Assembly: GCA_036262935.1 (NCBI GenBank) | Contig: DATAHW010000058.1 | Span: 6,024 to 70,023, forward strand | Origin: Gemmatimonadales bacterium | Lineage (GTDB): Bacteria; Gemmatimonadota; Gemmatimonadetes; Gemmatimonadales; GWC2-71-9 | Direction: 5' to 3' | Length of the DNA: 64,000 nucleotides | Part shown: positions 32,477-59,803 of the stretch, piece after piece | How the letters are laid out: each line of letters opens with the position of its first letter | How positions within the stretch are numbered: the first letter of the stretch is position 1 | Notes under the pieces: generated by a model | The model's database searches: none | What the model saw: only the letters and a program-made list of their open reading frames with translations | What the model was told of the DNA's origin: nothing | Position numbers and translations under genes: made by a program

Positions 32477-34303
32477 ATGACGGAATCTGAACCAGGCAAG
32501 GGACCGCGCAGCCGCCGTCTGCCGAAGCCGGGCCGGCTCGTGCGGCTCTGGCCCAGGGTCCGGCCGTACCGTGGCCTGCTGCTGGGCGCCACCGCCGCGC
32601 TGGTGCTGAGCAGCCTAGCGAGCCTGGCCTTTCCGATGGTGGTGAAGTACCTGCTCGATGCCGCGTTCGTGAACCACGACCGGGCGCTGCTCGACCGCAT
32701 CGCCCTGGGGCTGGTGGGGCTCTTCTGCGTGCAGGCGGTGCTCAACTACATCCAGACCTATCTGCTGAGCGCCGCGGGCGAGCAGGCGGTCGCGGGCCTC
32801 CGCCGAGAGCTGTTCTCGCGGCTGCTCGACATGCCGCCCGGGTTCTTCGCCGAGCGGCGGACGGGCGAGCTGACCAGCCGGCTCACGGTGGACATCGGCC
32901 TGCTGCAGAGCGTGCTGAGTCACCAGGTCTCCGAGTTCGCCCGGCAGGTGCTGGCGCTGGTGGGCGGCGTCGTCCTGCTCACCTGGCTGCAGCCCACGCT
33001 CGCCCTCACGGCGCTGGGGGTGGCGCCGGTGGTCGTAGGGACGGCGCTGATCTTCGGCAAGCGGCTCCGCCGGATGACCACGGGCGTCCAGGACCGGATC
33101 GCGGAGGCGAGCGCGGTGGCGGAGGAGGCATTCTCCCAGATTCGAACCGTGCAGAGCTTCGTGCAGGAGCCGGCGGAGCGCGAACGCTACGGCGACCGCA
33201 TCGATGCGAGCGTCCGGACCGCGCTGCAACGCGCCAACGTCCGGGGCGTGTTCTTCGGCATGCTCACCTTTTCGACCTTTGCCGGGATCGTCTTCGTGCT
33301 CTGGCAGGGCGGCCTGCTGGTGCTGGACGGGAAGCTCACGGCTGGGGCGCTGGTCTCCTTCCTCTTATATACCATCACGATCGCCGCCTCGATCGGCGCG
33401 CTGGCCACCTCGTTCACGACGTACCAGGAGGCGGTGGGCGCGGCCGAGCGGGTGTTCGAGATCCTGGAGATGTCGCCGGAGATCGCCGATCCGGCCCAGC
33501 CGGCGTCGCTACCCGTGCAGGTGCGCGGGCGGGTGGCGTACGAGGACGTGAGCTTCCGCTATCAGGCGGAGCCGGACGCACCCTGGACGCTCGACGGCAT
33601 CAACCTGTCGGTGGCGCCCGGCGAGATCGTGGCGCTGGTGGGACCCTCGGGCGCGGGGAAGACGACGCTGGTCTCGCTGCTGCCGCGGTTCTGGGACGTG
33701 AACCGCGGCCGGATCACGCTGGACGGCGTGGACATCCGCGCCCTCCGGCTGGCCGATCTCCGCGGCGCGATCGGGATCGTGCCGCAGGAGCCGGCGCTGT
33801 TCAGCGGGACGATCCGAGAGAACATCGCGTACGCGCGCCCGAGCGCGACGGACGCGGAGGTCGAAGCGGCGGCGCGGGCCGCCCACGCGCACGAGTTCGT
33901 GGAGCGCCTGGCGCTCGGCTATGAAACCCTGGTGGGCGAGCGCGGGATCAAGCTGAGCGGCGGGCAGCGGCAACGGGTGGCCATCGCCCGGGCCATCCTC
34001 AAGGACCCGGCGGTGCTCATCCTGGACGAGGCCACGAGCAACCTGGACACCGAGAGCGAGCGGCTGATCGAGGATGCCCTCTCCCGGCTGCTCGTGGGAC
34101 GGACGACCCTGATCATCGCTCACCGCCTCAGCACGGTGCAGCGGGCCGACCGGCTCGTGGTGCTGGAGCACGGGCGGGTGGTGGAGGAGGGGACGCACGG
34201 GGAGCTGCTGGCGCTGGGCGGGTTGTACGCGCGGCTCTATCAGCGGCAGTTTAGGGATGGGGCAGGGGTACCGCTGCTTGAATCGCCGTCGTTCGGCGGG
34301 TAA
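32477..34303 (+). CDS. ABC exporter, fused permease/ATPase (MsbA-like)
   Basis: I prefer the ATG at 32477, because the ORF-track start lies inside repeat B2. There are 6 TM helices followed by Walker A GPSGAGKTT, signature LSGGQRQR and Walker B LILDEATS. Confidence 0.8.
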   Translation: MTESEPGKGPRSRRLPKPGRLVRLWPRVRPYRGLLLGATAALVLSSLASLAFPMVVKYLLDAAFVNHDRALLDRIALGLVGLFCVQAVLNYIQTYLLSAAGEQAVAGLRRELFSRLLDMPPGFFAERRTGELTSRLTVDIGLLQSVLSHQVSEFARQVLALVGGVVLLTWLQPTLALTALGVAPVVVGTALIFGKRLRRMTTGVQDRIAEASAVAEEAFSQIRTVQSFVQEPAERERYGDRIDASVRTALQRANVRGVFFGMLTFSTFAGIVFVLWQGGLLVLDGKLTAGALVSFLLYTITIAASIGALATSFTTYQEAVGAAERVFEILEMSPEIADPAQPASLPVQVRGRVAYEDVSFRYQAEPDAPWTLDGINLSVAPGEIVALVGPSGAGKTTLVSLLPRFWDVNRGRITLDGVDIRALRLADLRGAIGIVPQEPALFSGTIRENIAYARPSATDAEVEAAARAAHAHEFVERLALGYETLVGERGIKLSGGQRQRVAIARAILKDPAVLILDEATSNLDTESERLIEDALSRLLVGRTTLIIAHRLSTVQRADRLVVLEHGRVVEEGTHGELLALGGLYARLYQRQFRDGAGVPLLESPSFGG

Positions 34304-34325
34304 CAGGACGGACGGGAGGGAAGCA

Positions 34326-34359
34326 CACCGCCCCGCGGATGTCGATCCGCGGGGCGGTG
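34326..34359. terminator. Bidirectional terminator-like hairpin (15-bp perfect stem, 4-nt loop) between convergent genes
   Basis: CACCGCCCCGCGGAT-GTCG-ATCCGCGGGGCGGTG, read directly. Confidence 0.6.
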
Positions 34360-34387
34360 TCGTCCGTGCTGGCCCTCAGACCGGGGC

Positions 34388-35449
34388 TCAGTCGCCGGTC
34401 GAGGGCACCTCATGACTCAGCGTGAGCTGGAAATACGGCGGCGCATCGCCCTCGAACAGCACGACGGAATAGAAGTAGGTGCCGGGTTGGAGCGTGAGCG
34501 TGCCGTCCTCGGGCTGCGTCGATCCGGTACCGGCAAAGGCGCCGTCACTGCAACCCGCGTCGAAGCAGACGATCGCATCCAGGTCGGCCGCGTTCGGCCA
34601 GTTGGTCACGAAGTGGTAATCGCCCGCTTCGGTTACGGTAAAGCGGTAGTACTGCGCACCCAGACCACCGTCGCCCGTGATGTCCGGGTTCGCGAGCGCA
34701 CCGGTATCGAAGAAGTTGACCGTCCCGCCGAGCGCCGGCACGGGAATGATCGGTCCGGTATTCGGCGAATCGCTGCCGGGCAGCTGCGTCGAACTCGCGG
34801 CTACAGCTTCCGTCGTCGGCAGTGTGAGCGGTACACCGGGTAGATCGGAGAAACCGACGCCGCCCAGCGTCAGCGGACCAGTGCTGCCGGGAATCAGCAC
34901 CACCGACAGCGAGGTGCCGTCGGGAGACACCGACTGCACCAGGCCGGAGCCGAGGCCCGACTCGACGGTGGCTTCGGGCGAGAAGGTATACCCGGCCGGT
35001 AGCGTGATCGTCGCCGCCTCGTTGACCGCCGGCGTTGCGGTCGAGAAGGTGGCCGCGATGATCGTGGGGAGCACCCGGACCGGCACCGGCTGCGTGAGGT
35101 TGCCCCCATTCACCGTGAACCCGCTGGTGCCGACCGTCAAGCCCGACACGATGAACCGCTGGCGCGTGTTGAGCTTCGTGCCGTTCGTCGTCTCGAGAAA
35201 TGTGGTGTCCTCCACCACGGAGATCTTCGAATCGACATCCGTCGGCTGGAAGTTGACGGGCAACTGATTGCCCTGCTCATCCAGCAGTTGCGCCGTCACG
35301 AAGACGTTGGCACCCTGATTGACAAACACCACGGAGGGATCGGTGGAGATTTCCTTCCCGGTCTCCTCAAAGGACCCCGTGGGATCTCCACCGCACGCCC
35401 CGGCGCCGGCAGCAAGGAGGAGAAGCAAGCCACACTTCGAACGCGTCAT
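34388..35449 (-). CDS. Secreted lipoprotein with Ig-like repeats and a PPC (pre-peptidase C-terminal)-like domain. Last gene of the TBDR-cargo-PorV operon.
   Basis: Lipobox LLLLAAGAGAC, beta-rich repeats, and a C-terminal segment YYRFTVTEAGDYHFVTNWPNAADLDAIVCFDAGC..GTYFYSVVLFEG that resembles PPC domains. Confidence 0.45.
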   Translation of the reverse strand: MTRSKCGLLLLLAAGAGACGGDPTGSFEETGKEISTDPSVVFVNQGANVFVTAQLLDEQGNQLPVNFQPTDVDSKISVVEDTTFLETTNGTKLNTRQRFIVSGLTVGTSGFTVNGGNLTQPVPVRVLPTIIAATFSTATPAVNEAATITLPAGYTFSPEATVESGLGSGLVQSVSPDGTSLSVVLIPGSTGPLTLGGVGFSDLPGVPLTLPTTEAVAASSTQLPGSDSPNTGPIIPVPALGGTVNFFDTGALANPDITGDGGLGAQYYRFTVTEAGDYHFVTNWPNAADLDAIVCFDAGCSDGAFAGTGSTQPEDGTLTLQPGTYFYSVVLFEGDAPPYFQLTLSHEVPSTGD

Positions 35450-35510
35450 ACGGGCACCTCGTGTTGAGAGAGCGATGGAAACGGTTCAGCCGGTCCGGCA
35501 GACGGCCGGG

Positions 35511-36968
35511 TCACTGCCGCCGAGCCTGCGACAACAGGTCTACGCCCAGGAATCGGCCGGCGTCTTCGACCGCGGGCGCCCCGAGCAGTTCACCCCACCC
35601 CGGCAGCCCCGGCTCCTTCAGGTCATTCGAGTAGATCAGCTTGTACGCGCCGAATCCCGACCGATCGGCGAAGATGTAGAACGCGCCCTTCCCCGTGGCG
35701 TACCGCCACACCTCGTATGGCGGAGCCCGGCCCTCCTGCTGCCTGCGGTAGACTTCCTCGGGCGCACCGTTCTTGGCGTAGATCCGCCCGCGATCGGTCC
35801 GCCACCCCGCCACCGCCGTACGTCCGCCCTCGCGGTAGGTATGGTCGGCGTAATCGACCGCCTGATAGAACTGCTCGCGCCGCTCGTTGCGGGGCGTTCC
35901 GGGCGTCGGGTCCCGGGCTTGCCAGAAGTTGGCCAGGAACCGCCGCTTGGCGGTAACGCTGAGCTTGTCGTTCCAGGCCCCGAGCTCGCCCGACTCCGCG
36001 ATGTACGACAGCGGGGCCTTGGCCTGGTCGAGCTGCTCGGCCGTCATCTCGCCGAAGTAGCCCTCGTCGGTGACGCGGTTCTCCGCGCGGCGGGCGCTGT
36101 CCCGCGCCAGTGTCGCGCCCAGCGGCGCCATGACGAACTCCCCCGAGCGGCGCACCATGCCGTCCTGGAGCTTCATCTCCGCCGTCATCGTGAACTCGCC
36201 CGGCGGAAGCCCGGTGAGATCCAGTTGCCCCTTCAGAATGCTCCCGCCCGGGGCCACGACGATCGGGATGGATGCCGTCTGCAACACCTTCGCTCCCGCG
36301 GAATCAGCTACCAGGACACTGAGTGTGCCCTTGTCGACCGCGGGGGAGTACGCCTCGAGCAAGTAGTACACCTTGGGCCGGAGCGGCGTGATCGTGACCT
36401 CCGCCGCCGCGGTGACCAGATTATTGCCCGTCCGGAACTCGCCCGGCCGGGGCCCTGCCTCGCTGTCCGCCGGCACCCGCATCTCCGGCGAGATCAGGAG
36501 GTCCGACGCCTTGGCGGTGTCCGCCAGTGCGTCGATGGGCACGGCCGCGCTCACCTGTCGGCCCGATACGGAGTCCCGGACGTCCACCTCGAACCGGTAG
36601 TGCCCGGGCGCGACCGCGAAGTCCACGATCTCGACCGCGGACTGCCCGTCCTGGCCCGCGCCGGACGGGACGTGGTTGGCCCACTCCTGGTGGAACAGCG
36701 TCAGGCCGGTGGAGTCGGCCACCCGCGCCGAGACCGTGTAGCCCCCCGCACCACCCGAGCCCGCCGGCGTGACGATCGAGAGCGGAATCTGCACCAGTCC
36801 CTTGACCCGGGTCTGCTTCGAGTCCGCCCGGTAGAACCGGAGCGCCCTGACCGTCAGCCCAGAATCGTTCTGACCGGCCCTGCCCGCCGCGGGCATCATG
36901 CCGAGCACCGCGGCGAGTCCGGCCGTCATCAATCGCAACATGAACATACCCATTCCACGGGAGCCCAA
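35511..36968 (-). CDS. GWxTD domain protein
   Basis: Signal peptide, then a C-terminal region with FWQARDPTPGTPRNERREQFY..AVAGWRTDRGRIY..YEVWRY..FADRSGFGAYKLIYS, which matches the GWxTD signature. Confidence 0.65.
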   Translation of the reverse strand: MGSRGMGMFMLRLMTAGLAAVLGMMPAAGRAGQNDSGLTVRALRFYRADSKQTRVKGLVQIPLSIVTPAGSGGAGGYTVSARVADSTGLTLFHQEWANHVPSGAGQDGQSAVEIVDFAVAPGHYRFEVDVRDSVSGRQVSAAVPIDALADTAKASDLLISPEMRVPADSEAGPRPGEFRTGNNLVTAAAEVTITPLRPKVYYLLEAYSPAVDKGTLSVLVADSAGAKVLQTASIPIVVAPGGSILKGQLDLTGLPPGEFTMTAEMKLQDGMVRRSGEFVMAPLGATLARDSARRAENRVTDEGYFGEMTAEQLDQAKAPLSYIAESGELGAWNDKLSVTAKRRFLANFWQARDPTPGTPRNERREQFYQAVDYADHTYREGGRTAVAGWRTDRGRIYAKNGAPEEVYRRQQEGRAPPYEVWRYATGKGAFYIFADRSGFGAYKLIYSNDLKEPGLPGWGELLGAPAVEDAGRFLGVDLLSQARRQ

Positions 36969-36984
36969 GCTCCCGCATGCATGC

Positions 36985-38115
36985 CTACCAACCGACCGTC
37001 ACGCTGAAGAAATTCGTGCCGCCCAGCACGCCGTGGTACTTCCAGGCGTAGTCGAACCCGAGGTCGAAGCCCGGGGTGGCGTAGTTGACACCGCCGCCGA
37101 GGGCGAGACCCTGCAGGTTCTCCTCGTCGCTCAGCGCCGTGGTGCTGCGCGGGTCGGTGGGGCTCAGGTTGTTGGCCGCCATGTAGCTGTAGCTGCCGCG
37201 GACGGCGAACCCGAAGGGCGAGTCGCCGAGATGCTGGGTCGCCCACTCCGCGCCGCCCGAGAAGCCGGCCTTGTTGTTGTTCGGCTGGTTGAAGTCGCCG
37301 AGCAGGGAGAGTCGGTTGTTCTCGCCGGTCATGAGATCATACGCCAAGCCCACCCGAAATGTGGTGGGGAGGTTGAACCCCGTGGTGCGGAATTCCGACG
37401 GCTGGGGGTTCTCCGGCACCGTGGGCTCGCCGGGGATCGGGTCCCGCGGGGTGTCCGTGTCGAGCGCGTTGCCGCTGTACGACAGGTTGGTCCCGAGGTT
37501 GGAGAGCACGAACGAGAACTGGATCGGGTGGCCGTTGAGCTGGGAATGGAAGTTGGTGCCGAAGTCCACGCCGAACGCGTTGCCGCTCGCCTCACCGAGT
37601 TGATCGAAGATCCCCTTGGCCGTGACGCCGGCGGAGAAGCGGTCGGAGAAATTCTGCGACAACGTCAGGCCGACGAAGGTCTCGTTGACGGAGTACACCG
37701 ACCCGGTGCCCTCGGGCTGGGTGGCGGTGTAGACCGGCTGGTCCTTGAACCCGTAAGTGCCGACCTGCAGGCCCACGGCGCGCGTGCCGCCGGAGAAGGG
37801 AAAGACGAGACCGCCCCAGCTGTACCGGGTGTCGGCAATGTAGTCATAGGTGCTGATCATGGCCCCCGGCCGCGTCACCAGTGCCGCGCCGCCGGGGTTG
37901 TAGTAAAGCGCGCTCACGTCGGTCGCGATCGCCGCGAAGGCGCCGCCGAGCGCGGTGCCCCGCGCGCCGGCGCCGAACAGCAGGAATTCCGCCGAGGTGG
38001 TGCCGTACGAGGTGTTGTCCTGATTGATGTCGTCCTGGGCGGACGCCATCGCGGGAAGTCCACTCAGCAGCGCGGCCACCAGTGCGGCCAGGTGTCGAGC
38101 CCGAAAATCACTCAT
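36985..38115 (-). CDS. porV: PorV/PorQ family outer-membrane beta-barrel protein (T9SS cargo shuttle-like)
   Basis: Signal peptide ..LPAMASA/QDD. The N-terminal signature GTTSAEFLLFGAGARGTALGGAFAAIATDVSALYYNPGG, an alternating beta-strand pattern and the C-terminus FFSVTVGW fit the family. AGGAGA lies upstream of the ATG. Confidence 0.7.
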   Translation of the reverse strand: MSDFRARHLAALVAALLSGLPAMASAQDDINQDNTSYGTTSAEFLLFGAGARGTALGGAFAAIATDVSALYYNPGGAALVTRPGAMISTYDYIADTRYSWGGLVFPFSGGTRAVGLQVGTYGFKDQPVYTATQPEGTGSVYSVNETFVGLTLSQNFSDRFSAGVTAKGIFDQLGEASGNAFGVDFGTNFHSQLNGHPIQFSFVLSNLGTNLSYSGNALDTDTPRDPIPGEPTVPENPQPSEFRTTGFNLPTTFRVGLAYDLMTGENNRLSLLGDFNQPNNNKAGFSGGAEWATQHLGDSPFGFAVRGSYSYMAANNLSPTDPRSTTALSDEENLQGLALGGGVNYATPGFDLGFDYAWKYHGVLGGTNFFSVTVGW

Positions 38116-38143
38116 ATGCGTTCCGTCTCCTGGATGCTGGGGA

Positions 38144-38165
38144 GGGCAGGCCCGAAGGCCTGCCC
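38144..38165 (-). other. Intra-operon hairpin GGGCAGGCC-TTCG-GGCCTGCCC between the cargo gene and the porV-like gene
   Basis: 9-bp perfect stem with a TTCG tetraloop (minus-strand reading), located 14 nt after the cargo stop. Confidence 0.5.
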
Positions 38166-38178
38166 CCGGGGGCCTCTA

Positions 38179-41100
38179 CTACTGAGCGAAGTTGACGATG
38201 GTGAACCGGCCCACTCTCCGGGCGTCACCGGCCTCGATGTGGTAGAAGTACACGCCGCTCGCCACGACCTGATTGTTCCGGTTCCGCACGTTCCAGTTCT
38301 CGGCGCCGCCGAACTGGTCGGAGTGGTGCTCCAGCAGATTCACCAGCACGCCGCTGGACGAGTAGATCCGGATGATCGCGTCAGTCGGGAGATTGACGAA
38401 CTTGATCACCTTCGAGTCGGTGGTCGACTCGAACTGGTTGGTGACGTAGTACGGATCGGGCACCGTGTGGACCTTCGTCAGATCGTTGGCGGTGGCCGCG
38501 ACCACGTTGTTCACCACCGTGATCTTGGTGCTGAGCTCCACGCCCACGGCCGTCAGCGGTCGGATGCCTTCGGGGTTGCTATAGGCGTACGGGCCGAGGC
38601 TGCCGGCGCCGACACCGTTGCCGCCCGTGATCGCGCCGACGTACTGGCGCAGCGCCCACACAGTTCCCGCCGCCGGCACCGCGCCGCCGGCCAGCTCGAA
38701 GGTGAACATGTCGCCGGAGATGTAGAGCGCGAAGCCGTTGCTCCCGCCGGGCACGATCGGCACCGCCGGCGGATATGCGCCGCCGCTGAAGAAGCCCACG
38801 GTGCCGGGCACGGCGGTATTGCTGAGCCTGTAGGGCGCCGTGGTGCTCGGGCAGATGAGCCCGCCCGCCGCGTAGGTCCGGAATGGCTCGACGCACGCGA
38901 AGTCGGCGTTGGTGAGCGTCGCGCTTCCGTCCAGGCCGGGTCCGACGGCGGTGGCGGCCTGGTTCAGCACGCCCCAGGTCCCCCCCGCGATCGAGTCGAA
39001 CGGCACGACGACGTTATGGGTTACGTCGATGACCGAGTCGATGACCCCGCCGGTGCCCCAGTAGAGGTTGAAGTCCGCCGCGCGCTTGGCCCCGGACTGG
39101 ATGCCGGCCACCGGACGGCAGCTGGCGCCACCCGCCGACTGGTAGCACTGCGTCTGGTAGATCGTGGTCACGCCGGGAAGCGCGCCCGCGTTGTTGAAGC
39201 AGGGCATCGGGGTATTGGTGAAGTTGCCGGTGTTGCACCCGATCGGATCGGCTTGGGTCTCGTTGTTCTGGGGCGATGGCCCGGCGAACCAGCGTGATCC
39301 ATTGTAGGCGCATTCGCCTGCGTCACCGAAGCCCTCCTGGTTGTTGACGCAGCCGCGGCCATAGAGCGCGAGGTAGTCCGGACCAGGGAGGCTCACGGTC
39401 GCCGATGCGGAGAGCTTGAAATTCGCATTGCCGCCGAACCGGCTCGCCAAGCTCGGGTCGATCGGTACAGCCGGTGCCCCCGCCGACGCCGTCGTGACGC
39501 CGGTCTCCTCGGGCTGGAGGATGGGAACGCTCGCGATGCCCGAGGAGCTGCCGGAGGCAACCGTAAACCAGTACTTGTGCGGGACTCCTTGATAGGGCGA
39601 TCCGAGCGTGACGCTGTCCAGCCGGGCTGAGACGTCGGTTTCGCCGGTCAGCACTTGGGTGGCGATCGCACCAACCCCCACGCTCCAGCCGTTCGCCGGC
39701 GGGAACGGACCGCTGAACATGCCGGTCGTCGGGTCGATCGTCGGGTTGGGCGCGGCGCTGTCGAGTGCCTGCCCGCGGCCCAGGAACGCGGTGGTCACGT
39801 TCGCAATGTCGTTCTGGAAGTTCGGGGACTGCGCCGCCGGGGTGACCGACTTGGTGTTACGCGGCGACTCGATGCTCGCCGGCCCGGACTGCAGGGAGTT
39901 GATGTCGAACGCGGTCACCGAATAGAAATAGCGCAGGTTGCTGCGCACTCCGTGGTCGATGAAGGTGAAGGGGATGCCGGTGTCCCGGAGTGCAGGATAC
40001 CCCTGGCCTCCGCCCGTGGTGGCGGTATCGGCGTGCAGGATGAGCGCCTCGCCCGTTGCGAGCGCGGTGCGGTCGCCCTTCCTGACCTGGATCACCGGAC
40101 CAACGAGAGGAATATCCACGCCGATGGTCGGCACCACGCCCGAGGTGGTATCGAACGGGACAGGGCAGGCGATGGCGATCCCGAGCTCCGGTGCGCACTG
40201 CGGGGACGGGTTGACCTGGCCAGTGAAGTCCTTGATCAGCGTGCCCACGTAGTCGAACTGGGCCACCAGCGAGAGCGAGTTGGGGGAATCCACCCGACCG
40301 CGGTAGATCCGGTAGCCCTCGACGTCGAACTGGCGGTAGTTCGGATCGAACAGCAGGTTCGGCGCGCCTTCCGGGGTGAGCGGCTGGCTGGCGATGGCGA
40401 AGAACGGATCGCCGGTCGTCTCGCTCGCGGTCTGGCGCCACAGCACAGTTACCTGGTTGTCGCCCGGGATCAGGAAGAACTCGGGCGCGTCGGGCGCGAA
40501 CGGCAGCAGGAAGCCGTTGTTGAACACCTGCTGTGCCACGAGCGCCTTGCCCAGCAGCGAGTTGGGCACCACGTCGATCGAGTCCTGGACCACTGCGCCG
40601 TTGGCATCCGCCCCGCGGAAACCGCGATAGCCGGTGACGGAGTCCACCGCGTTAGCGCCGGCGTTGAGTGCCGTCGGAGAGCTGAGCCTCGTGGGGTCGC
40701 CCGGCGCCAGATCGCAGGTGCCCGGGCCGGTGCACGAGCCGGTGATGACCGGGGCGGCAAAGATGTAGGCCACCACGATGGAGCCGAACTGGCCGGGGCC
40801 GAGTGTCAGGGGGCCCGACGACTGGAAGAACCGCATGTCGTCCGGCGCCGTGTTGTTGATGAAGCAGATATGGCTGACGTGCGGGTCGCCGGTGTTGCAG
40901 TTGGCGTCGCCCGCGGCCGGGCTGATGTTGTTGGAGATGTAGCGGTAGAGCTGCGTCGTGTTCTGCGCGTCGTCGAACGAGCCGCCGTTGATGGTGTTGC
41001 TGAAGAGGGTGAGGCCCACCTCGGCGCCGTTCACGATCGGGCTCTTGAGGTACTTCACCCCGACGAACCCCGAGCCGGGAAAGAACGGCGGGCTGAAGAT

Positions 41101-42108
41101 CGACGGGTCGAAGGTCCAGCCGTCAGCGCCCGCGAAGTCGCTCGCGTACACATACCCCAGGGCGAACGGCACGTTCACCGACGAGAAGTTGGAAGTGGCC
41201 TCGGCGACGTCCATGTCGGCCGAGAACGCCGCGAACATGTTGGTGACGGTGTAGCCGCCGTCCGGAATCTGGATCCCGAACGCCTGCTCGTTCTTCTCCT
41301 GGAAGATCTGCCCCTGGCGGGCCAGGATCTCGTCCATGCCGGGGCGCACGCCGTTGGCCTGGTACACCCCGATATCCGACGAGGTCACGTTGTAGAACGT
41401 GTAGATGTAGTAGAGGATGTCCTCGTTGCCCACGGGATAGTTCCAGCCCATGCCCCGCTGTTCGACCATGATACCTAGCGGATGCGGGCGGCCGGCGCCC
41501 AGCGCCGGATTGCCATCCCACGAGAGCCACCAGACGTCGCCCTGCGATGCCACGGCACGGCCGCGGAGGAGCGGGTTGAACAGCTCCGCCTGGGTGTCGC
41601 CGTTGGGCACCTTGGCCGCCTTGGACACGATGTCGGCGCCGGCGGTGGTGTCCGACATGAAGGTGAGGTCGTCCGGGTTGCTGGAATTGTAGATCGGCTC
41701 GACTTCTTCCCCGTGCTGGGTCGTGCCCTTGGGGTCGAAGAAGAAGGCGCCGGTGGTGTCACCCGCCCATTCGGGGTTGGCGTCGCCGCCAATGATGCCG
41801 GCGAGCTGCAGGCCGGAGTTGAACACGTACTGGTCGGCCGTGCCCTTGGGCCAGAAGCCGCCGCCGATGGTGGACGAGTTCGTCGAGTCCACGCAGACCT
41901 CGCCGTCCGAGTTCAAGCCGCAATAGATGCGGTTGACCGTGATCGCGCCGAGGGTGCGGGCAAACAGGCGGAAGCCGCGCTTCCCGGGCACGCCCGGCTT
42001 GGGCTTGGCGGGCTCCAGGGCCGCGGACGCCGTGGGCGTCAGGACCGCCAGACCGAGCGAGCAGAGCGCGGCCAGCAGCACGGTGCGCGTACGCAAAAAG
42101 GAGTGCAT
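38179..42108 (-). CDS. 1309-aa secreted protein of unknown function with a T9SS-type C-terminal sorting domain (CTD)
   Basis: Signal peptide ..LTPTASA/ALE. The last about 85 aa (VPDPYYV..IKFVNLPTDAIIRIYSSSGVLVNLLEH..WNVRNRNNQVVASGVYFYHIEAGDARRVGRFTIVNFAQ) match the Por_Secre_tail/FlgD-Ig-like pattern. I recognised no catalytic motif in the body. Confidence 0.65.
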   Translation of the reverse strand: MHSFLRTRTVLLAALCSLGLAVLTPTASAALEPAKPKPGVPGKRGFRLFARTLGAITVNRIYCGLNSDGEVCVDSTNSSTIGGGFWPKGTADQYVFNSGLQLAGIIGGDANPEWAGDTTGAFFFDPKGTTQHGEEVEPIYNSSNPDDLTFMSDTTAGADIVSKAAKVPNGDTQAELFNPLLRGRAVASQGDVWWLSWDGNPALGAGRPHPLGIMVEQRGMGWNYPVGNEDILYYIYTFYNVTSSDIGVYQANGVRPGMDEILARQGQIFQEKNEQAFGIQIPDGGYTVTNMFAAFSADMDVAEATSNFSSVNVPFALGYVYASDFAGADGWTFDPSIFSPPFFPGSGFVGVKYLKSPIVNGAEVGLTLFSNTINGGSFDDAQNTTQLYRYISNNISPAAGDANCNTGDPHVSHICFINNTAPDDMRFFQSSGPLTLGPGQFGSIVVAYIFAAPVITGSCTGPGTCDLAPGDPTRLSSPTALNAGANAVDSVTGYRGFRGADANGAVVQDSIDVVPNSLLGKALVAQQVFNNGFLLPFAPDAPEFFLIPGDNQVTVLWRQTASETTGDPFFAIASQPLTPEGAPNLLFDPNYRQFDVEGYRIYRGRVDSPNSLSLVAQFDYVGTLIKDFTGQVNPSPQCAPELGIAIACPVPFDTTSGVVPTIGVDIPLVGPVIQVRKGDRTALATGEALILHADTATTGGGQGYPALRDTGIPFTFIDHGVRSNLRYFYSVTAFDINSLQSGPASIESPRNTKSVTPAAQSPNFQNDIANVTTAFLGRGQALDSAAPNPTIDPTTGMFSGPFPPANGWSVGVGAIATQVLTGETDVSARLDSVTLGSPYQGVPHKYWFTVASGSSSGIASVPILQPEETGVTTASAGAPAVPIDPSLASRFGGNANFKLSASATVSLPGPDYLALYGRGCVNNQEGFGDAGECAYNGSRWFAGPSPQNNETQADPIGCNTGNFTNTPMPCFNNAGALPGVTTIYQTQCYQSAGGASCRPVAGIQSGAKRAADFNLYWGTGGVIDSVIDVTHNVVVPFDSIAGGTWGVLNQAATAVGPGLDGSATLTNADFACVEPFRTYAAGGLICPSTTAPYRLSNTAVPGTVGFFSGGAYPPAVPIVPGGSNGFALYISGDMFTFELAGGAVPAAGTVWALRQYVGAITGGNGVGAGSLGPYAYSNPEGIRPLTAVGVELSTKITVVNNVVAATANDLTKVHTVPDPYYVTNQFESTTDSKVIKFVNLPTDAIIRIYSSSGVLVNLLEHHSDQFGGAENWNVRNRNNQVVASGVYFYHIEAGDARRVGRFTIVNFAQ

Positions 42109-42149
42109 CGAGTCCTCTCTTCAAGTTGGAACGAAGGGGGCCCGGCCTT

Positions 42150-42179
42150 CCGGCCGCCGGTCGGTGTGACCGGGGCCGG
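42150..42179 (-). other. Intra-operon hairpin (12-bp stem with one bulge) between the TonB-dependent receptor and the cargo gene
   Basis: CCGGCCCCGGTC-ACACC-GACCGG(C)GGCCGG on the minus strand, beginning 16 nt after the receptor stop. Confidence 0.4.
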
Positions 42180-42194
42180 AATGCCGTGCTCAGC

Positions 42195-45100
42195 CTAGAA
42201 GTTCAGCTCCAGCCCGAGCCGGAACCGCCGCGGCGAACTGGTGAAGTTGTGGATCCCGCGCACCTCATCATAGAGGGCGTTGGATGCCGCGCGCTGCTCG
42301 TTCAGGTCGAACACGTGATCGCCGTTGCCGTACCGCTCCTCGGTGCGGATGAGCGCGACGCAGTTCGGTGAGCCCGGAGAGCCATCCTGCTTGAGCCACG
42401 AGTCGCACCCGGTCCGGGGATCGGTCGCGCCATTGAAGCTCAGGTCGATGGATCCGTCGTTGAGCAGGAAACCGCCCCGGTCCGCCTCGTTCGCGTAGTC
42501 TGCGCTGTCGGCGGCGAAGTTCTGCGTCCGCTCCCGCTCGTTGGCCACGTCGTTCGTGGTCGTGAAGACCTGGATGATGTTCTTGAAGTTGAGGACGTTC
42601 CGCGCCTCCAGGTAGCCGGTGAGGTCCATCCCCCGGATCGTGAAGCCCTTGGTCAGCCGCAGGTCCAGGTTCTTGTACGCCGGCAGCCGCGAGCTGTTGA
42701 GCGGCTCCGGGAAGGTCCGGTTGCAGCTATCGCCCGAGACGATGTCCTCGTCGCCGGCGTTCTGCGCGCAGGGCGTGTACGGGGTGCCGCTGGTGTAGCG
42801 GAAGGTGGCGAACAGACCCACGTTCTGAAGCACCGAGCCCAGCGTGGACCCGCGCTTCCAGTCGTTGGGGAAATTGAGGGCCCCCGCCAGGGCCAGGTTG
42901 TGCGGCCGATTGAAGTCGGTCGGCAGGATGGCCTGCGGCGGCGGCTGATTGCCACCCGACACCTGGTTCAGCACCCGCGAGCCGAAGTCGAGATAAGTAT
43001 CCGGGTCCGAGCCGGTGTTCTTCGACTGCTGGTAGGTGTAGGAGAGCGTGCCGTTGAAGAAGTTGCCGAACCGGCGGTCGAGCCGAACGTCGACGCCGCG
43101 GGTGTTGCCGAAGTCCGCGTTGGTGATGATGCGGAGGTTGTTGTCGATCCCGCGCAGCGGGTCGAAGCGCGACACCAGACGGCCGGCGGCGTTCGCCAGA
43201 TTGTCCTTGTTGTACGCCGCGATGTCCAGGACCATGTCGTCGCTGAACGCGTGCCGGATGCCGAACTCGAACGTGATCGTCTTGCCGAAGTCCAGGTCGC
43301 TGCCGTAGAAGTTGTTGGTGTTCGTCGTGGCCAGGTCGGTGTTGATGCCCTGCAGCACCACGCCGAAGTCCGGGGCCTGGACCTGGTGGGCGTAGGAGAA
43401 CCGGAAATTCGTCCGGTCCGTCACCGGGAACGACACCTGGATGTGCGGGCTCAGGTAGTCGTGCGCCTTGTCCCGCGGGAACAGCGAGTCGCTGGTGAAG
43501 AACGCCTGTGGATCGGTTGGGTTGAACGCCGGATTGGTCGAGATCCGGGGGAAGCCGTTCCACCGGCGCGCCCGGGTGTCGTACCGATCGTACCGGAGCC
43601 CGCCAACCACCACCACGTCGCCCAGGTCGAGCCGGTCCTCGAGGAACGCGTTCCAGCGGATGGGCTTCTCCATGTAGAAGTCGGAGAACGCCTGGCTGTC
43701 GAGCTGGTGCGAGTAGCTGTCGAGATGGTACTGGGTGAACTCGCCGCCCAGCTTGAGCCGGTTATAGCGGTCGAACTGCCAGTCCAGGTTGGCCTTGCCG
43801 ATGTAGCGGTTCTCGCGATAGAGCACCAGCGTCTGGGCAAACCGCGAGGACCCGGCCGGACCACCGCTCTCGGGGAAGAGCACCGAGGCGAACTCGTCCA
43901 GATTGTACAGGCCATAGGCGTTGTTCCGCCACTCGTCGGTGAGCGCGTACTGTGCCGTGTTCTCCAGATTGTAGGGCGACCGGCGGCTGCCGGCGATATT
44001 CTGCCGGTAGTTGTTGAGCAGGCTGTCGTCCAGCGGGAAGTTGTCGAAATTGAACAGGAAGTCGATCGGCTTGATCATGAACCCGCCGAACGGATCACGG
44101 GTGTTGAGCTCGCTCTCACTGGTCATCGTCCCGTTGATCGTGCGGTCGGTCTGGTACGAGAGGTACACGTCCAGCGCCAGGGCCCGCTCCGTGCTCCGGG
44201 TCAGGTTCTGGGTCCAGTTGAGGGTGAGGACATTGCTCCAGTTCCGGAAGGCCGGCAGGTTCTGCGGGGTGGAGAGCGCGCCGTAGGTCAGGAACCGGCC
44301 CGCGACGTCCAGGTTTTCGCGGAAGGTCCGCCCCTCGAACTGACTGCTCAGCGCCGTGAGCGCGATACGCGAGCCGGTGCCGAACGTGTAGTTGAGCTTG
44401 CCGGTGAGCTGGTACGTGGAGCGCGCCGACCAGGGCACCCGCACGCCCTCGCAGTCCACGCCGTAATTGCTGGCGATGCCCGGGTTGGTGCTGTTGGCGA
44501 AGGTGTCGCAGTCGCCCCGCGAGATGGCGTAGTTGTACACCGGCACGACCGTGGTATCCGCCGTCGGGTCGTTCACCGCGCTCGGCACCCGCAGCGTGGT
44601 GTCGATCCCCGCCTGCAGGAAGATCGGGAACTTCTGGCTGTCGAACCCGCTTTCGACCGACTGCTGTCCCTCCAGCGACCCCGACACGTAGAACGTGAAG
44701 TTCTTCGCGATCGGTCCGCCCAGGCTGGCCAGCACCCGATTGAAGCCGATGCTGTTGCCCACGCCGAACGGCTCGTCGGTCTCGAAGTTCAGGGACCCGC
44801 TGTACCGGTCGCCGCCGGTCCGGGTGGACAACGAAATGACGCCCGACTGGGCGTTGCCGAACTCGGCCGACGACGACCCGGTGGTGACCGACGCCTCTTC
44901 CAGCGAGTTCTTGCCGATGGCGATCTGCGTCCCCGCCGAGCCGCGGCGCGAGTCGCCACGGTATCCCGGGGAGACGGGCACGCCGTCGATGTAGGTCACG
45001 GCCTCCTCGGTGCGGCCGCCGCGGATCGAGATGGCACTCCCGCTCGAGTTGGCCGCCACCACGCCCGGCTGCAGGATCAGGACGCTGTTCAGCCGGTCCA

Positions 45101-45575
45101 CCGGCAGCTTCTCGGTGAACACGCCGTCGATCCGCTGCTTCGAGGTGACCTCGTCGCGCGGCACCAGCGGCTGGGTCTGGGTGACGACGGTGATCTCCTG
45201 GATCTCGACCGCCGTCTGCTCGAGCTGGACGTCCACCGTGATCGTCTGGCCGGCGAGGACCTTCACGCCTTCGACCTGGGTGGACTTGTACCCGATGAAG
45301 GCGGCGCGGACGGCCACCGTGCCGGCGGGGACGTTGTTGATGAAATAGTAGCCCTGAGGGTTGGTGAGGGCGTTGAACGCCGTCCCCACCACATACACCT
45401 GGGCATTGGCGATGGGCGCGCCCGCCTGATCTCGCACCCTGCCTTCGATTTTACCAGTCGAGCCCTGGGCCAGGAGCGAGCCGGCTCCCAGACCCAGCGC
45501 GACTGCCGCGAGCGCGACCGATCGCGAAAGCGATCGCGCGACGCGTGCGAAGGCGCTGACACGGCTTTGCTTCAT
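42195..45575 (-). CDS. TonB-dependent outer-membrane receptor with an N-terminal CarboxypepD_reg domain (SusC/Oar-like, about 1126 aa)
   Basis: I prefer the ATG at 45575, with GGAGG 7 nt upstream. Signal peptide ..GAGSLLA/QGS. The CarboxypepD_reg segment is GKIEGRVRDQAGAPIANAQVYVVGT..GYYFINNVPAGTVAVRAAFIGYKS, followed by the plug (LILQPGVV..ISIRGGR) and a long barrel ending RLGLELNF. Confidence 0.8.
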   Translation of the reverse strand: MKQSRVSAFARVARSLSRSVALAAVALGLGAGSLLAQGSTGKIEGRVRDQAGAPIANAQVYVVGTAFNALTNPQGYYFINNVPAGTVAVRAAFIGYKSTQVEGVKVLAGQTITVDVQLEQTAVEIQEITVVTQTQPLVPRDEVTSKQRIDGVFTEKLPVDRLNSVLILQPGVVAANSSGSAISIRGGRTEEAVTYIDGVPVSPGYRGDSRRGSAGTQIAIGKNSLEEASVTTGSSSAEFGNAQSGVISLSTRTGGDRYSGSLNFETDEPFGVGNSIGFNRVLASLGGPIAKNFTFYVSGSLEGQQSVESGFDSQKFPIFLQAGIDTTLRVPSAVNDPTADTTVVPVYNYAISRGDCDTFANSTNPGIASNYGVDCEGVRVPWSARSTYQLTGKLNYTFGTGSRIALTALSSQFEGRTFRENLDVAGRFLTYGALSTPQNLPAFRNWSNVLTLNWTQNLTRSTERALALDVYLSYQTDRTINGTMTSESELNTRDPFGGFMIKPIDFLFNFDNFPLDDSLLNNYRQNIAGSRRSPYNLENTAQYALTDEWRNNAYGLYNLDEFASVLFPESGGPAGSSRFAQTLVLYRENRYIGKANLDWQFDRYNRLKLGGEFTQYHLDSYSHQLDSQAFSDFYMEKPIRWNAFLEDRLDLGDVVVVGGLRYDRYDTRARRWNGFPRISTNPAFNPTDPQAFFTSDSLFPRDKAHDYLSPHIQVSFPVTDRTNFRFSYAHQVQAPDFGVVLQGINTDLATTNTNNFYGSDLDFGKTITFEFGIRHAFSDDMVLDIAAYNKDNLANAAGRLVSRFDPLRGIDNNLRIITNADFGNTRGVDVRLDRRFGNFFNGTLSYTYQQSKNTGSDPDTYLDFGSRVLNQVSGGNQPPPQAILPTDFNRPHNLALAGALNFPNDWKRGSTLGSVLQNVGLFATFRYTSGTPYTPCAQNAGDEDIVSGDSCNRTFPEPLNSSRLPAYKNLDLRLTKGFTIRGMDLTGYLEARNVLNFKNIIQVFTTTNDVANERERTQNFAADSADYANEADRGGFLLNDGSIDLSFNGATDPRTGCDSWLKQDGSPGSPNCVALIRTEERYGNGDHVFDLNEQRAASNALYDEVRGIHNFTSSPRRFRLGLELNF

Positions 45576-45782
45576 GGATACGTCCTCCAAAGGCGTGAAC
45601 CTGCGCGTACGACCGACTTCCGCGTCGATCACTTCCGGCGGGGAGCGCACACGCCCCCCTGGGCACGGTGGCCCATGTGGCATGCGACAGCTGTGGGATT
45701 ACACCTGCGTCGTGAAGAGGAGTACGATCACGCGGGCATTGCGCCAGCGTGTGCGACGACCGCGGCCCGGTCGACGCCGCCT

Positions 45783-45811
45783 AATATGGAGCGCGCAAAA
45801 TTGCGTGTCAA
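45783..45811 (-). promoter_or_regulatory. Sigma-70-like promoter TTGACA-17 nt-CATATT, about 200 nt upstream of the TonB-dependent receptor start
   Basis: The minus strand reads TTGACACGCAATTTTGCGCGCTCCATATT. The spacer contains the inverted repeat CGCAA-TT-TTGCG. Confidence 0.45.
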
Positions 45812-46047: not shown

Positions 46048-47214
46048 CTACCCGGGAACGATCAGCTCGCGCTGCGGCGCACCGGGCGTGACCTCGAGTC
46101 CCGCCGGGTCCCAGTGCATGTTGATCTCGCTGCGCACGCCGAATTCCCCGGGGAGATACACGCCCGGTTCCACCGAGAACCCCACGCCCGGGACGAGCCG
46201 GCGGTCGTCGTGGGTCTCGTAGTCGTCGAGGTGCGGCCCGGAGCCGTGCAGGTCGCGGTCGATCGAATGCCCCGTCCGGTGGACGAACGCGCGCCCGAAC
46301 CCCGCCGCCTCGATGACGCCGCGCGCCGCCCGGTCGGCCTCGTACCCGGCGATGGGCCGCCCCGCCGCCGCCGCGCTCCTGACGGCGGCCACCGCGGCGT
46401 CGCGGGCGGCGCGCACTGTCTCCCACACCAGCTCCACCCGCTCCGGCACCGGGCTCCCGGCGAATCCCATCCAGGTCTGGTCGGCGAACACCGTGTCGAG
46501 ACGCCGCCCGGCCCAGAGGTCGAGCAGCACCACGTCGCCGGTGCGAAGCGTCGCGTCCCGACCGGCGTGCGGCTCGTAGTGCGGATTGGCCGAGTTGGCG
46601 CCGAAGGCGACGATCGGGAAGGTGTCGAACACCAGCCCCCGCGCCTCCGCGGCCGCCACGACGCCCGCCTGCAGCGCGGTCTCGGTTAGACCGGTCCCGC
46701 CCTCCCGCACCGCCCGCGCGAGCGCGGCCCGCGCCACCTCCGCCAGCACCTCCGCGGCGAAGCGGTGGTCGGCCGCCTCCTCGGGCGTCCACCCGGCCGC
46801 GAACCGGCTCACCAGCGCCCCCGAGGGGACCACGGTGGCACCCAGCCGCCGGATCAGCTCGACTACACCGTACGGCACCCGGTCGAGGTACGGCACCGCG
46901 TCGTCGGGCGAGATCTCCATCGCGAGCCGCCGGCCCGCGACGACCGAGCCGAGCGCCGCATGGAGCTCCTCCCACCGGGCGTATGGCACCACTCGCCCGG
47001 GGAAACCCTCCACCGACGCGAGCTCGATCTTGTGCGCCACCGCGACCGGGTCGCCGTCCCGCGGCAGCAGCACGAACAGCCGGCGGGTGTTGAGTCCGCT
47101 GAGGCCCAGCACCCGCGTCGCCACCGGATTGAGCCCGTGAAACGCGTAGAGGAGCCAGGCGTCGGCGCCCGCCTCGGCCAGCGCATCCCGGAGCGCCGCG
47201 CGGTCCGGGATCAT
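46048..47214 (-). CDS. M24 family Xaa-Pro dipeptidase (cytoplasmic)
   Basis: I prefer the ATG at 47214 (MIPDRAAL..). The 870-aa ORF-track call is a run-on. Motifs LLDLWAGRRLDTVFADQTW, HRTGHSIDRDLHGSGP, SVEPGVY..GVRSEINM. Confidence 0.75.
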   Translation of the reverse strand: MIPDRAALRDALAEAGADAWLLYAFHGLNPVATRVLGLSGLNTRRLFVLLPRDGDPVAVAHKIELASVEGFPGRVVPYARWEELHAALGSVVAGRRLAMEISPDDAVPYLDRVPYGVVELIRRLGATVVPSGALVSRFAAGWTPEEAADHRFAAEVLAEVARAALARAVREGGTGLTETALQAGVVAAAEARGLVFDTFPIVAFGANSANPHYEPHAGRDATLRTGDVVLLDLWAGRRLDTVFADQTWMGFAGSPVPERVELVWETVRAARDAAVAAVRSAAAAGRPIAGYEADRAARGVIEAAGFGRAFVHRTGHSIDRDLHGSGPHLDDYETHDDRRLVPGVGFSVEPGVYLPGEFGVRSEINMHWDPAGLEVTPGAPQRELIVPG

Positions 47215-47840
47215 TCGTAGACCTCGGCGGCCGCGCAGCGCCAGACGCAGGCCTCGTCCCCGCGCGAGCGGCAGGCCTCGTGGAGCATGGCGCCCTCGAA
47301 CCCGCTCAGTGAACGGAGCAGCTCGCCGTAGGCGGCACCATAGAACGCGCAGGCCGCGCCGTCCGGAACGGCGAGGATGGAGAGCGGGTCGGCCATGCGC
47401 ACCTCGGTGCCGGTGGCGGGCGCCCGGAGCTCGCCGCCGAACACCTGGCCCGCAAGCCGCGACGCGGCCCGGCGCGAGACCCGTCGGCCCAGTCCGCCGG
47501 GCGACACCCGCGCGAGCGTCCGCGCGGAGCGTCCGCCCGAGCGGACGGCGTGGCGCGCGGCCCGCCGCCCGGCATCGGCGAACACCAGCGCCGCGTCCGG
47601 CCGCCGTCCCACCAGCCGGATCACCGAGACGACCTCGTCGAGCTCGACCGTCCCGTCCCGCTCCGCGGCGGTGCGATAGCGCTGGATCTGCGCCGCCACG
47701 GTGGGGCTCAGTCCCAGCCGGCGCACGACGATCTCTTCGGCGAGCTCGTCGAGTCCGTCCTCGACGGGCGTATCGAGGTTGCGGATCGCCTCGAGCAGAC
47801 TGAGGGGAACGAGCGCGGGGACGGCGGGAGGAGTAGGCAC
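47211..47840 (-). CDS. V4R-domain-like protein (putative small-molecule or hydrocarbon sensor domain), translationally coupled to the M24 peptidase
   Basis: The C-terminus reads ACAFYGAAYGELLRSLSGFEGAMLHEACRSRGDEACVWRC (V4R-like H..C..G...C.W.C). ATGA overlap with the peptidase start. GTG start. Confidence 0.4.
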   Translation of the reverse strand: MPTPPAVPALVPLSLLEAIRNLDTPVEDGLDELAEEIVVRRLGLSPTVAAQIQRYRTAAERDGTVELDEVVSVIRLVGRRPDAALVFADAGRRAARHAVRSGGRSARTLARVSPGGLGRRVSRRAASRLAGQVFGGELRAPATGTEVRMADPLSILAVPDGAACAFYGAAYGELLRSLSGFEGAMLHEACRSRGDEACVWRCAAAEVYE

Positions 47841-47883
47841 GGGAATCGTGCCCGGAAGCTAGCGGGTCCATTACATTCTTTCC

Positions 47884-48456
47884 ATGGCCGAGCCCTCCAC
47901 CGCCGGGCGTCAGTTCAACGCCGAGGCGCTGCCCCATCTCGACGCGCTGTACCGCACCGCGCTCCGGCTCACCGGCGATCCGTCCCAGGCGGAAGACCTG
48001 GTCCAGGATACCATGCTCAAGGCCTACCGGGCATGGCGGCAATACCAGCCGGGAACCAACGCCAAGGGTTGGCTGCTCACCATCCTGCGGAACACGTTCA
48101 TCAACGACTACCGGCGCCGGAAGCTGGAGCCGATCGCCACCGACCTGGAGCTGGTCGAGCCGCATGCCCTCTATCGCGCCATCGAGGACGTCGACCCCGA
48201 GGGCGCGTTCTTCGCCAAGATCGTGGACGAAAAGGTGCTGGAGGCGATCGACGCGCTGCCGCCCGACTTCCGGGAGGTGCTGGTGCTGAGTGATATGGAA
48301 GGGATGAGCTACGGCGAGATCGCGGAGGCGCTCGAGATCCCGGTCGGGACAGTCAAGTCGCGCCTGTTCCGCGCGCGCCGGCTGCTGCAGTCCTCGCTCT
48401 ACGCCTACGCGGTGGAGACGGGAATAATTCCGCCCCGGGAGGATCATGATGGGTGA
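47884..48456 (+). CDS. ECF-type RNA polymerase sigma factor
   Basis: Region 2 (DLVQDTMLKAYRAWRQY..GWLLTILRNTFINDYRR) and region 4 (LPPDFREVLVLSDMEGMSYGEIAEALEIPVGTVKSRLFRAR). Confidence 0.85.
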   Translation: MAEPSTAGRQFNAEALPHLDALYRTALRLTGDPSQAEDLVQDTMLKAYRAWRQYQPGTNAKGWLLTILRNTFINDYRRRKLEPIATDLELVEPHALYRAIEDVDPEGAFFAKIVDEKVLEAIDALPPDFREVLVLSDMEGMSYGEIAEALEIPVGTVKSRLFRARRLLQSSLYAYAVETGIIPPREDHDG

Positions 48457-48697
48457 GCCGATCAACTGCCGCGAGGCGGCGGAACGGCTGCAGGATTTCC
48501 TCAAGCAGGAGCTGACCCCGGAGCTCGAGGCGGAGATGCAGGCGCACCTCGAACGCTGCCGCCCCTGTTTCGACGAGGCGCGGTTCGAGGCCAACTTCGT
48601 GCTCATGCTCGAGGTCCGGGCGCGACGCGTCGAGTGTCCCGCCGCGCTCCGGGCGCGCATCGCCCGCCTGCTCCAGAGCGAGATGGAGCGGGGCTGA
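48446..48697 (+). CDS. Small cytoplasmic zinc-binding anti-sigma factor (ZAS, RsrA-like)
   Basis: 83 aa with no TM segment. It has C8 plus H34-x3-C38-x2-C41 (HLERCRPC at 48545-48568). It overlaps the sigma gene's 3' end. Confidence 0.7.
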   Translation: MMGEPINCREAAERLQDFLKQELTPELEAEMQAHLERCRPCFDEARFEANFVLMLEVRARRVECPAALRARIARLLQSEMERG

Positions 48698-59800: not shown

Positions 59801-59803
59801 GTC

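Follow-up and report, generated by a model that had tools for sequence, protein, structure and literature searches.

We analysed a stretch of 64,000 nt from a Gemmatimonadales bacterium (contig DATAHW010000058.1; 70% GC), called the window below, to which all coordinates refer. It contains a cluster of five genes encoding a TonB-dependent transporter (gene 1), a 1309-aa secreted protein that we call the cargo (gene 2), an outer-membrane barrel of the PorV/PorQ family (gene 3), a GWxTD-domain protein (gene 4) and a probable lipoprotein (gene 5). The cargo ends in a C-terminal domain (CTD) resembling those of type IX secretion system (T9SS) substrates, and the order of the first four genes is kept in distant loci with unrelated flanks. 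The reading that we prefer, tentatively and at a little less than an even chance, is that the cargo is a T9SS-delivered surface binding protein, anchored through its retained CTD to a dedicated PorV/PorQ paralogue and feeding the transporter. An earlier reading of this DNA, made from its letters alone (the sequence-only reading), had described five co-directional minus-strand genes separated by 86, 63, 16 and 61 nt; the coordinates of the open reading frames (ORFs) bear this out, and both peptides that it quoted are found in the translations. All five ORFs show the third-codon-position GC bias typical of real genes, and a signal peptide was recognised by inspection on each of the five products.

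The CTD is the best conserved stretch of the cargo. Its placement is the typical one, at the very C-terminal end of a protein that starts with a Sec signal, which by inspection reads MHSFLRTRTVLLAALCSLGLAVLTPTASA|A. What the sequence-only reading called a clear T9SS domain is less clear in the window's own protein, where TIGR04183 scores 18.2 bits against a curated cut-off of 23 and CHU_C (PF13585) 21.3 bits against 27; the tail of PorZ is matched with an E-value of 7.7e-6. The family as a whole gives a firmer picture. Among 22 diverse cargo members, TIGR04183 (PF18962) matches 20 at E<0.1, with a best value of 3.8e-7, the PorZ tail matches all 22 and the PorU tail 14. With TIGR04183, the individually scored cargoes of L086 and L087, two distant loci, give 26 and 30 bits, above the cut-off. 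As judged by these profiles, the type-A-like CTD is secure at the level of the cargo family. A type-B CTD with a PorP/SprF partner was considered and rejected: there is no TIGR04131 match, the CHU_C score is sub-threshold and the neighbouring gene belongs to the PorV/PorQ family. Outside the cluster, the window also carries an ORF for the T9SS translocon Sov/SprA, which scores 525 bits with the equivalog model TIGR04189 (cut-off 200) and matches SprA_N at E 7e-12. An ORF for an M28 peptidase (15450-16634, minus strand) lies directly downstream of the SprA ORF, about 12 kb from the cluster; the two ORFs overlap as listed.

The cargo belongs to a large family that has no Pfam model for its body. 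We recovered 1133 relatives, the 120 closest clusters being 58-84% identical, and an exhaustive search, in which full-length members reached as low as about 33% identity, gave 828 clusters at 50% identity. The distant cluster members are listed without taxon names; the few relatives that carry an organism label are all from Gemmatimonadales. None of these has a Pfam domain on record, and two relatives are named 'T9SS type A sorting domain-containing protein' by NCBI. A Pfam scan of the 22 diverse members gave matches to CTD-type models only, with none in the body.

Structure prediction assigns a fold to the N-terminal part of this body. The layout of the cargo comprises the signal peptide, a beta-supersandwich (residues about 50-530), an FN3-like region (about 545-760), a beta-rich C-terminal half and the CTD. 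A model of residues 30-800, based on 68 diverse sequences, has a predicted local distance difference test score (pLDDT) of 91 and a predicted template modelling score of 0.88. Its top Foldseek match in the PDB is the N-terminal beta-supersandwich of GH94 cellobiose/chitobiose phosphorylase (E 5e-6, probability 1.0), followed by GH149, GH15 and GH116 enzymes and YidC P1, while FN3 arrays match more weakly. The (alpha/alpha)6 catalytic barrels of the GH94, GH15, GH116 and GH149 enzymes have no counterpart in the almost all-beta cargo model. A longer model, of residues 30-1225 (20-sequence alignment), has a pLDDT of 53 and no meaningful PDB match. Because no caspase/gingipain-like or propeller fold appeared among the Foldseek matches of the cargo models, nor any catalytic fold, we consider the cargo a homologue of neither PorU nor PorZ. 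Both identities had been tried as profile matches and rejected: the PorU sortase model (NF033707) matches the tail only (11.4 bits against 420), with no C25 domain in the 22 members, and the PorZ model (NF052228) aligns only at its tail, over profile positions 686-744 of 757, with no propeller. Sequence and profile searches of the PDB gave nothing useful for the transporter, cargo, PorV-like, GWxTD or PPC protein.

The gene directly downstream of the cargo gene encodes a protein with a signal peptide and an aromatic last residue (W). It scores 143.1 bits with the PorV/PorQ family model NF033709 (cut-off 90), its residues 39-374 covering profile positions 1-324 of 326, which bears out the family call of the sequence-only reading. 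The equivalog models are not reached: PorQ (NF033711) gives 60.9 bits against 220, PorV (NF033710) 43.8 against 250 and PorV2 40 against 325. On these scores the product is a member of a separate PorV/PorQ subfamily, neither PorV nor PorQ proper. Proteins of the NF033709 family occupy the same position in L086 and L087. In L087, two tandem genes of about 378 aa follow the cargo (7997-10278), the first scoring 120.6 bits with the PorV/PorQ family and the second without an NCBIfam match. The barrel had been described earlier as a private shuttle for the cargo. The family assignment stands, but 'private anchor' is the better description, because the CTD of the cargo is most like those of PorZ and PorU, which are retained and bound by PorQ and PorV.

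The transporter gene most likely starts at the ATG at 45575 (MKQSRV...), which is preceded by a GGAGGA Shine-Dalgarno sequence and gives a product of 1126 aa instead of 1162; its orthologues are annotated at 1108-1122 aa. The protein consists of a signal peptide, a CarboxypepD_reg N-terminal extension, a Plug and a large barrel, and its C-terminus is ...LELNF. The extension (PF13620, 69.6 bits) and the Plug (PF07715, 32.2 bits against 23.9) both score above their cut-offs. The barrel model PF00593 gave no match in the window's protein at E<=0.1, but the records of the L001 and L086 orthologues list it; the L086 record also lists PF25183. Membership of the SusC/RagA family (TIGR04056) was rejected at 30.1 bits against a cut-off of 368, with a match to the N-terminus only. 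Scans of the cluster with profile hidden Markov models found no SusD family match among the genes downstream of the transporter gene, and a SusC/SusD pair was rejected on both grounds.

The identification of the fourth product as a GWxTD protein was confirmed, with 88.7 bits for TIGR04514 (cut-off 28) and 39.7 bits for PF20094 (cut-off 26.9). Its motif reads GWRTD at residues 388-392, and G388, W389 and D392 are invariant in the alignment. If translation starts at the ATG at 36947, the protein has 478 aa. A homologue search returned close Gemmatimonadales relatives only; relatives are named 'GWxTD domain-containing protein', and no mention of the domain was found in the literature searched. 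The fifth product has a lipobox (LAAGAGAC) and a PPC match of 23.3 bits, below the cut-off of 25.9. It is the fastest-evolving protein of the cluster, with 28-58% identity to its counterparts except for 96% in the near-identical locus L037, and its length varies, the counterpart in L003 having 551 aa.

The gene order is conserved among relatives. A profile scan of one genome per species recovered 479 cargo relatives, and synteny was read from the best 80 loci, neighbours being counted by tblastn with the window proteins over the loci that could be assessed. The transporter gene lies upstream of the cargo gene in 65 of 72 loci and a PorV-like gene immediately downstream of it in 64 of 73; the GWxTD gene is near the cargo gene in 55 of 64 loci and the PPC lipoprotein gene in 52 of 62. 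The complete five-gene set occurs in 48 of the 80. These loci are labelled Gemmatimonadales or Gemmatimonadota, except for the unclassified L083 and two contigs that were probably mis-binned, and L037 matches the window at 98% identity. The two contigs, L020 with the label Bacillota and L042 with the label Acidobacteria, belong to metagenome-assembled genomes of other phyla but have a typical Gemmatimonadales locus with 52-58% cargo identity, and are probably binning errors. Synteny of the orthologous loci cannot by itself separate function from collinearity, because their flanks, with a gene for an extracytoplasmic function (ECF) sigma factor upstream and an ATP-binding cassette (ABC) exporter downstream, are conserved too. 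The distant loci L086 and L087, with 34-36% cargo identity and unrelated flanks, keep the order transporter, cargo, PorV family, GWxTD. A gene 5 counterpart was not found in these two loci. The gene association pointed out by the sequence-only reading is upheld by comparison among relatives, with five genes in 48 of 80 loci and a four-gene core at about 35% identity. Its fifth member, announced as an Ig/PPC lipoprotein, is frequently found in the neighbourhood of the cargo gene but lies outside the deep core, with a sub-threshold PPC domain.

Parts of the cluster have also been duplicated. Paralogous pairs of transporter and cargo genes adjoin Ser/Thr-kinase genes, some of them fused to DNA-binding and BTAD domains, and in L042 and L080 the transporter and cargo ORFs overlap or share one base. 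These paralogous pairs and ORF contacts support the coupling of transporter and cargo suggested earlier. The kinases flanking L039, L040, L042 and L080 are about 1000 aa (Pkinase+TPR) or about 520 aa (Trans_reg_C+BTAD+Pkinase) long, and it is possible that the kinases beside the paralogous pairs are dedicated regulators. Pairs of cargo and PorV-like genes without the remaining cluster genes occur as well, and cargo paralogues are also found beside MatE genes or in tandem. On contig_14833 of the metagenome-assembled genome MFD01721.bin.1.83, two cargo copies (L012 and L016) lie about 58 kb apart. Identity is 78% between their bodies but 100% over their last 95 residues and 99% between the PorV-like proteins encoded downstream. 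As a sequence pattern, this points to gene conversion or recent duplication of a CTD-plus-barrel unit; the predicted CTD and the PorV-like barrel travel together.

The transcript architecture appears to be more structured than the single five-gene operon of the sequence-only reading, which had one promoter and one terminator. The consensus-like promoter was recovered where it had been placed (45811-45783), as a pattern match, and lies upstream of gene 1 by about 208 nt, counted from the revised start codon; these 12 kb contain two sites of this kind, where chance alone would give 0.7. The spacer between the transporter and cargo genes folds at -47 kcal/mol (z -4.1; none of 200 shuffles as stable). 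Orthologous spacers are 66-93 nt long and contain a long GC hairpin in 54 of 54 cases, with sequences that differ among loci; a pyrimidine-rich tract often follows the hairpin, and then a conserved Shine-Dalgarno sequence. The hairpin just past the cargo stop codon is not significant alone in the window (z -0.9), but over 73 loci the 60 nt after this stop have a mean z of -2.8 and an uninterrupted stem of at least 8 bp in 78%. The mean z across loci is -3.5 after the transporter gene, -2.8 after the cargo, -2.5 after the PorV-like gene and -4.0 after the last gene, and there is no hairpin signal across loci after the GWxTD gene (+0.2). Hairpins after cluster genes are present in the distant L086 and L087 also. 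The downstream hairpin that had been taken for a terminator is real, with a stem of 16 bp, but it has no U-tract; the 91-nt stretch around it (34300-34390) folds at -55 kcal/mol (z -5.7), and a hairpin follows the last gene in 82% of loci. Strong stem-loops follow genes 1 and 2, which makes the one-promoter, one-terminator picture too simple. The hairpins after genes 1-3 look like partial terminators or stabilisers of mRNA 3' ends. With a conserved hairpin behind each of the transporter, cargo and PorV-like genes, the cluster is, on this sequence evidence, more likely to be a punctuated operon whose expression is graded than a plain single transcript.

Table. Features of the five-gene cluster and its T9SS context in window coordinates
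Feature	Position	Strand	Description
Gene 1	42195-45575 from corrected start (ORF to 45683, 1162 aa)	minus	TonB-dependent transporter, 1126 aa
Gene 2	38179-42108	minus	1309-aa secreted cargo, body without Pfam model
T9SS type-A-like CTD of gene 2	38182-38433, residues about 1226-1309	minus	TIGR04183 match at residues 1232-1302
Gene 3	36985-38115	minus	376-aa outer-membrane barrel, PorV/PorQ family
Gene 4	35511-36968	minus	Secreted GWxTD-domain protein, 485 aa
Gene 5	34388-35449	minus	Probable lipoprotein with weak PPC domain, 353 aa
Sigma-70-like promoter match	45783-45811	minus	TTGACA-17-CATATT, 10/12 positions; pattern match only
Stem-loop in gene 1-gene 2 spacer	42139-42195	minus	14-bp GC core, then pyrimidine-rich tract and gene 2 Shine-Dalgarno sequence
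Hairpin just past gene 2 stop	38142-38167	minus	11-bp GC hairpin, UUCG loop; z -0.9, not significant alone
Closing hairpin	34325-34360	minus	16-bp GC stem between convergent genes, no U-tract
T9SS translocon Sov/SprA equivalog (context, outside cluster)	16442-22537	minus	2031 aa

Other genes of the window were noted in passing. The ECF sigma factor gene (47884-48456, plus strand) is divergent and lies about 2.3 kb upstream of the cluster, a position kept in most orthologous loci; a short ORF (48446-48697, plus strand) stands where L001 and L003 have a zf-HC2 anti-sigma gene. An ORF of 870 aa (46048-48660, minus strand) probably represents two genes, for a 209-aa protein (47211-47840) and an M24 peptidase of about 387 aa, which are separate in L001 and L003. 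Type II secretion/type IV pilus genes are found at 10433-14490 on the minus strand (T2SSF, a PilT-like ATPase of 376 aa and a T2SSE/MshEN ATPase of 570 aa), and tandem genes for Kup-type K+ transporters of 627 and 644 aa at 57917-61738 on the same strand.

In the reading that we prefer, the locus would encode a Gemmatimonadota-specific outer-membrane module with a core of four proteins, the TonB-dependent transporter, the cargo, the PorV-like barrel and the GWxTD protein. By homology, Sec would carry the cargo over the inner membrane, and a SprA-type T9SS, to which it would be directed by its CTD, over the outer membrane. The CTD would stay uncleaved and bound to the barrel encoded downstream, in the manner of PorZ-PorQ and PorU-PorV, and would so tether the large beta-rich body (supersandwich, FN3 and beta domains) to the cell surface. 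There the cargo may capture a macromolecule as its ligand, for which the supersandwich fold makes a glycan or glycoconjugate the most plausible candidate, and, as gene linkage suggests, would hand the ligand or its fragments to the adjacent transporter for TonB-energised import. Its function would then be similar to that of the surface glycan-binding partners of SusC. The GWxTD protein would act as a conserved secreted accessory and the PPC lipoprotein would be a lineage-specific addition, and the hairpins after genes 1-3 would probably grade the expression of the cluster genes. A bolder claim is that Gemmatimonadota have an undescribed plan for a nutrient-uptake machine: the transporter would receive its capture subunit through the T9SS, where other systems use a lipoprotein such as SusD or SusE, and the subunit would be docked by its uncleaved CTD on the dedicated PorV/PorQ paralogue, with GWxTD as an obligatory component. 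We regard this as rather unlikely, if attractive.

Several observations weigh against the capture-and-import reading. T9SS function has, to our knowledge, never been demonstrated in Gemmatimonadota, and the CTD of the window's own cargo scores below the TIGR04183 cut-off. The C-terminal 440 residues of the cargo body have a model of moderate confidence and no fold match. The conservation of the cargo among its 120 closest clusters is unusually high for nutrient capture. The main locus holds no ligand, enzyme or regulator that points to a substrate, and the predicted supersandwich fold is no proof of glycan binding; YidC P1 shares this fold. The 376-aa barrel may instead be the genome's only general PorV. 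Some paralogues have no PorV-like neighbour (9 of 73) or no transporter (7 of 72), and some are tandem or solitary.

Other explanations place the cargo elsewhere. The pair of cargo and PorV-like barrel might be core T9SS machinery, a counterpart of PorZ-PorQ or PorU-PorV with a different body fold, its linkage to the transporter being secondary. The CTD is indeed closest to the tails of PorZ and PorU, the PorQ model gives the barrel a higher score than the PorV model does, and the locus, not far from SprA, is a single, orthologous and highly conserved one; the supersandwich could bind sugars of lipopolysaccharide, as proposed for PorZ, and porU and porV are adjacent genes in Bacteroidota. However, the cargo shows neither a caspase/gingipain-like nor a beta-propeller fold, and its matches to the PorU and PorZ models are confined to the tail. 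Core machinery would not usually have multiplied, as the cargo family has, into several groups of paralogues in a genome that adjoin transporters, kinases or MatE genes, and the linkage to transporter and GWxTD genes persists at deep divergence, so that we consider this explanation improbable. To an equal degree we doubt that the cargo is a structural surface-layer (S-layer) or adhesin protein, comparable to the T9SS-secreted TfsA and TfsB of Tannerella and anchored by the PorV-like barrel beside a functionally unrelated transporter. Its size, its beta-rich make-up, its CTD and its lack of a catalytic signature would fit such a role, tandem pairs of cargo paralogues exist, and the T9SS is known to secrete S-layer proteins (PMC10202324). 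Against it, the adjacency of transporter and cargo recurs in independent paralogous contexts, down to the overlapping or base-sharing ORFs of L042 and L080, and the cargo is conserved much above what is usual for S-layer proteins.

The two remaining explanations concern the transporter and the cluster itself. The TonB-dependent barrel might export or release the cargo, or some other protein, in the way that Oar handles PopC in Myxococcus. The sequence-only reading had offered export beside import, and we found nothing in favour of export beyond resemblance: the receptor has the Oar-like series of CarboxypepD_reg, Plug and long barrel, and PF25183 is recorded for the L086 orthologue. From this architecture by itself one cannot tell export from the import that TonB-dependent transporters usually perform, the cargo already has a complete T9SS signal in a genome with SprA, and no PopC-like substrate is encoded within the cluster; we hold export by the barrel to be very unlikely. 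Scarcely more probable is that the genes are merely neighbours, their order reflecting general Gemmatimonadales collinearity without shared function. The conserved flanks of the orthologous loci are in line with such collinearity, and the hairpins after genes 1-3 could be full terminators. Yet the four-gene order is kept at about 35% identity on contigs with unrelated flanks, sub-modules are duplicated together, and what remains of the spacers after the hairpins is too short for promoters, with a conserved Shine-Dalgarno sequence at each spacer end.

Knowledge of the T9SS is almost wholly based on Bacteroidota, and the locus offers a genetically testable pair of cargo and partner in Gemmatimonadota; a literature search combining T9SS and Gemmatimonadota found nothing relevant. 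A large cargo family without a Pfam model for its body gains a predicted fold, a probable export route and partners. The GWxTD domain gains a conserved neighbourhood. If the bolder claim above is true, the domain also gains a first functional context, and the T9SS outside Bacteroidota would be an assembly route for transporter complexes. A real coupling of cargo and transporter would mean that TonB-dependent transporters can acquire a surface capture protein by a further route, which bears on substrate acquisition by the abundant Gemmatimonadota of soil.

The Bacteroidota provide a precedent for each of these elements in isolation. In Porphyromonas gingivalis, the CTDs of PorZ and PorU are not removed, and PorQ and PorV anchor the two proteins at the surface (PMC5562754). 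The window locus shares with these pairs a CTD of the PorZ/PorU type and a barrel of the NF033709 family, but the C25 fold of PorU and the propellers of PorZ are absent from the cargo body, the barrel fails the PorV and PorQ equivalog cut-offs, and the pair differs in its linkage to a TonB-dependent transporter and a GWxTD gene and in its paralogues. Genes for type-B CTD cargo precede the gene for their own outer-membrane partner, which governs secretion and surface anchorage, as in SprB-SprF and PG1035-PorP (PMC12618676, PMC9143113). The window locus is likewise a cognate pair of cargo and partner genes, although its partner is of the PorV/PorQ family rather than PorP/SprF and its CTD is type-A-like. 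In the BamG-BamH pair of the Bacteroidota beta-barrel assembly machinery, a FadL/PorV-like 14-stranded barrel docks a co-encoded extracellular protein (PMC12578637); BamH is a surface lipoprotein without a CTD, and no link to BamA was seen at the window locus.

The polysaccharide utilisation loci of Bacteroidota also place a transporter with a CarboxypepD_reg-type extension beside a surface beta-sandwich protein and, like the paralogues of the cargo, have regulator genes of their own at the locus. The window locus has no SusD-like gene, no membership of SusC/RagA and no carbohydrate-active enzyme, and its surface partner is proposed to use the T9SS and a barrel anchor instead of the lipoprotein route. 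Some polysaccharide utilisation loci have T9SS-secreted enzymes such as ChiA. Oar of Myxococcus is built like the transporter, as a long protein with CarboxypepD_reg, Plug and barrel, but its role in export is unlike the situation in the window, where the cargo bears its own T9SS signal and no evidence of export was found. The statement of the sequence-only reading that this is not a described system holds for the combination of genes, while each element has a precedent in Bacteroidota. What is new here is the cargo family, the linked partner of the PorV/PorQ family, the fact that a non-SusC transporter and a GWxTD protein are constantly associated with them, and the phylum in which they occur.

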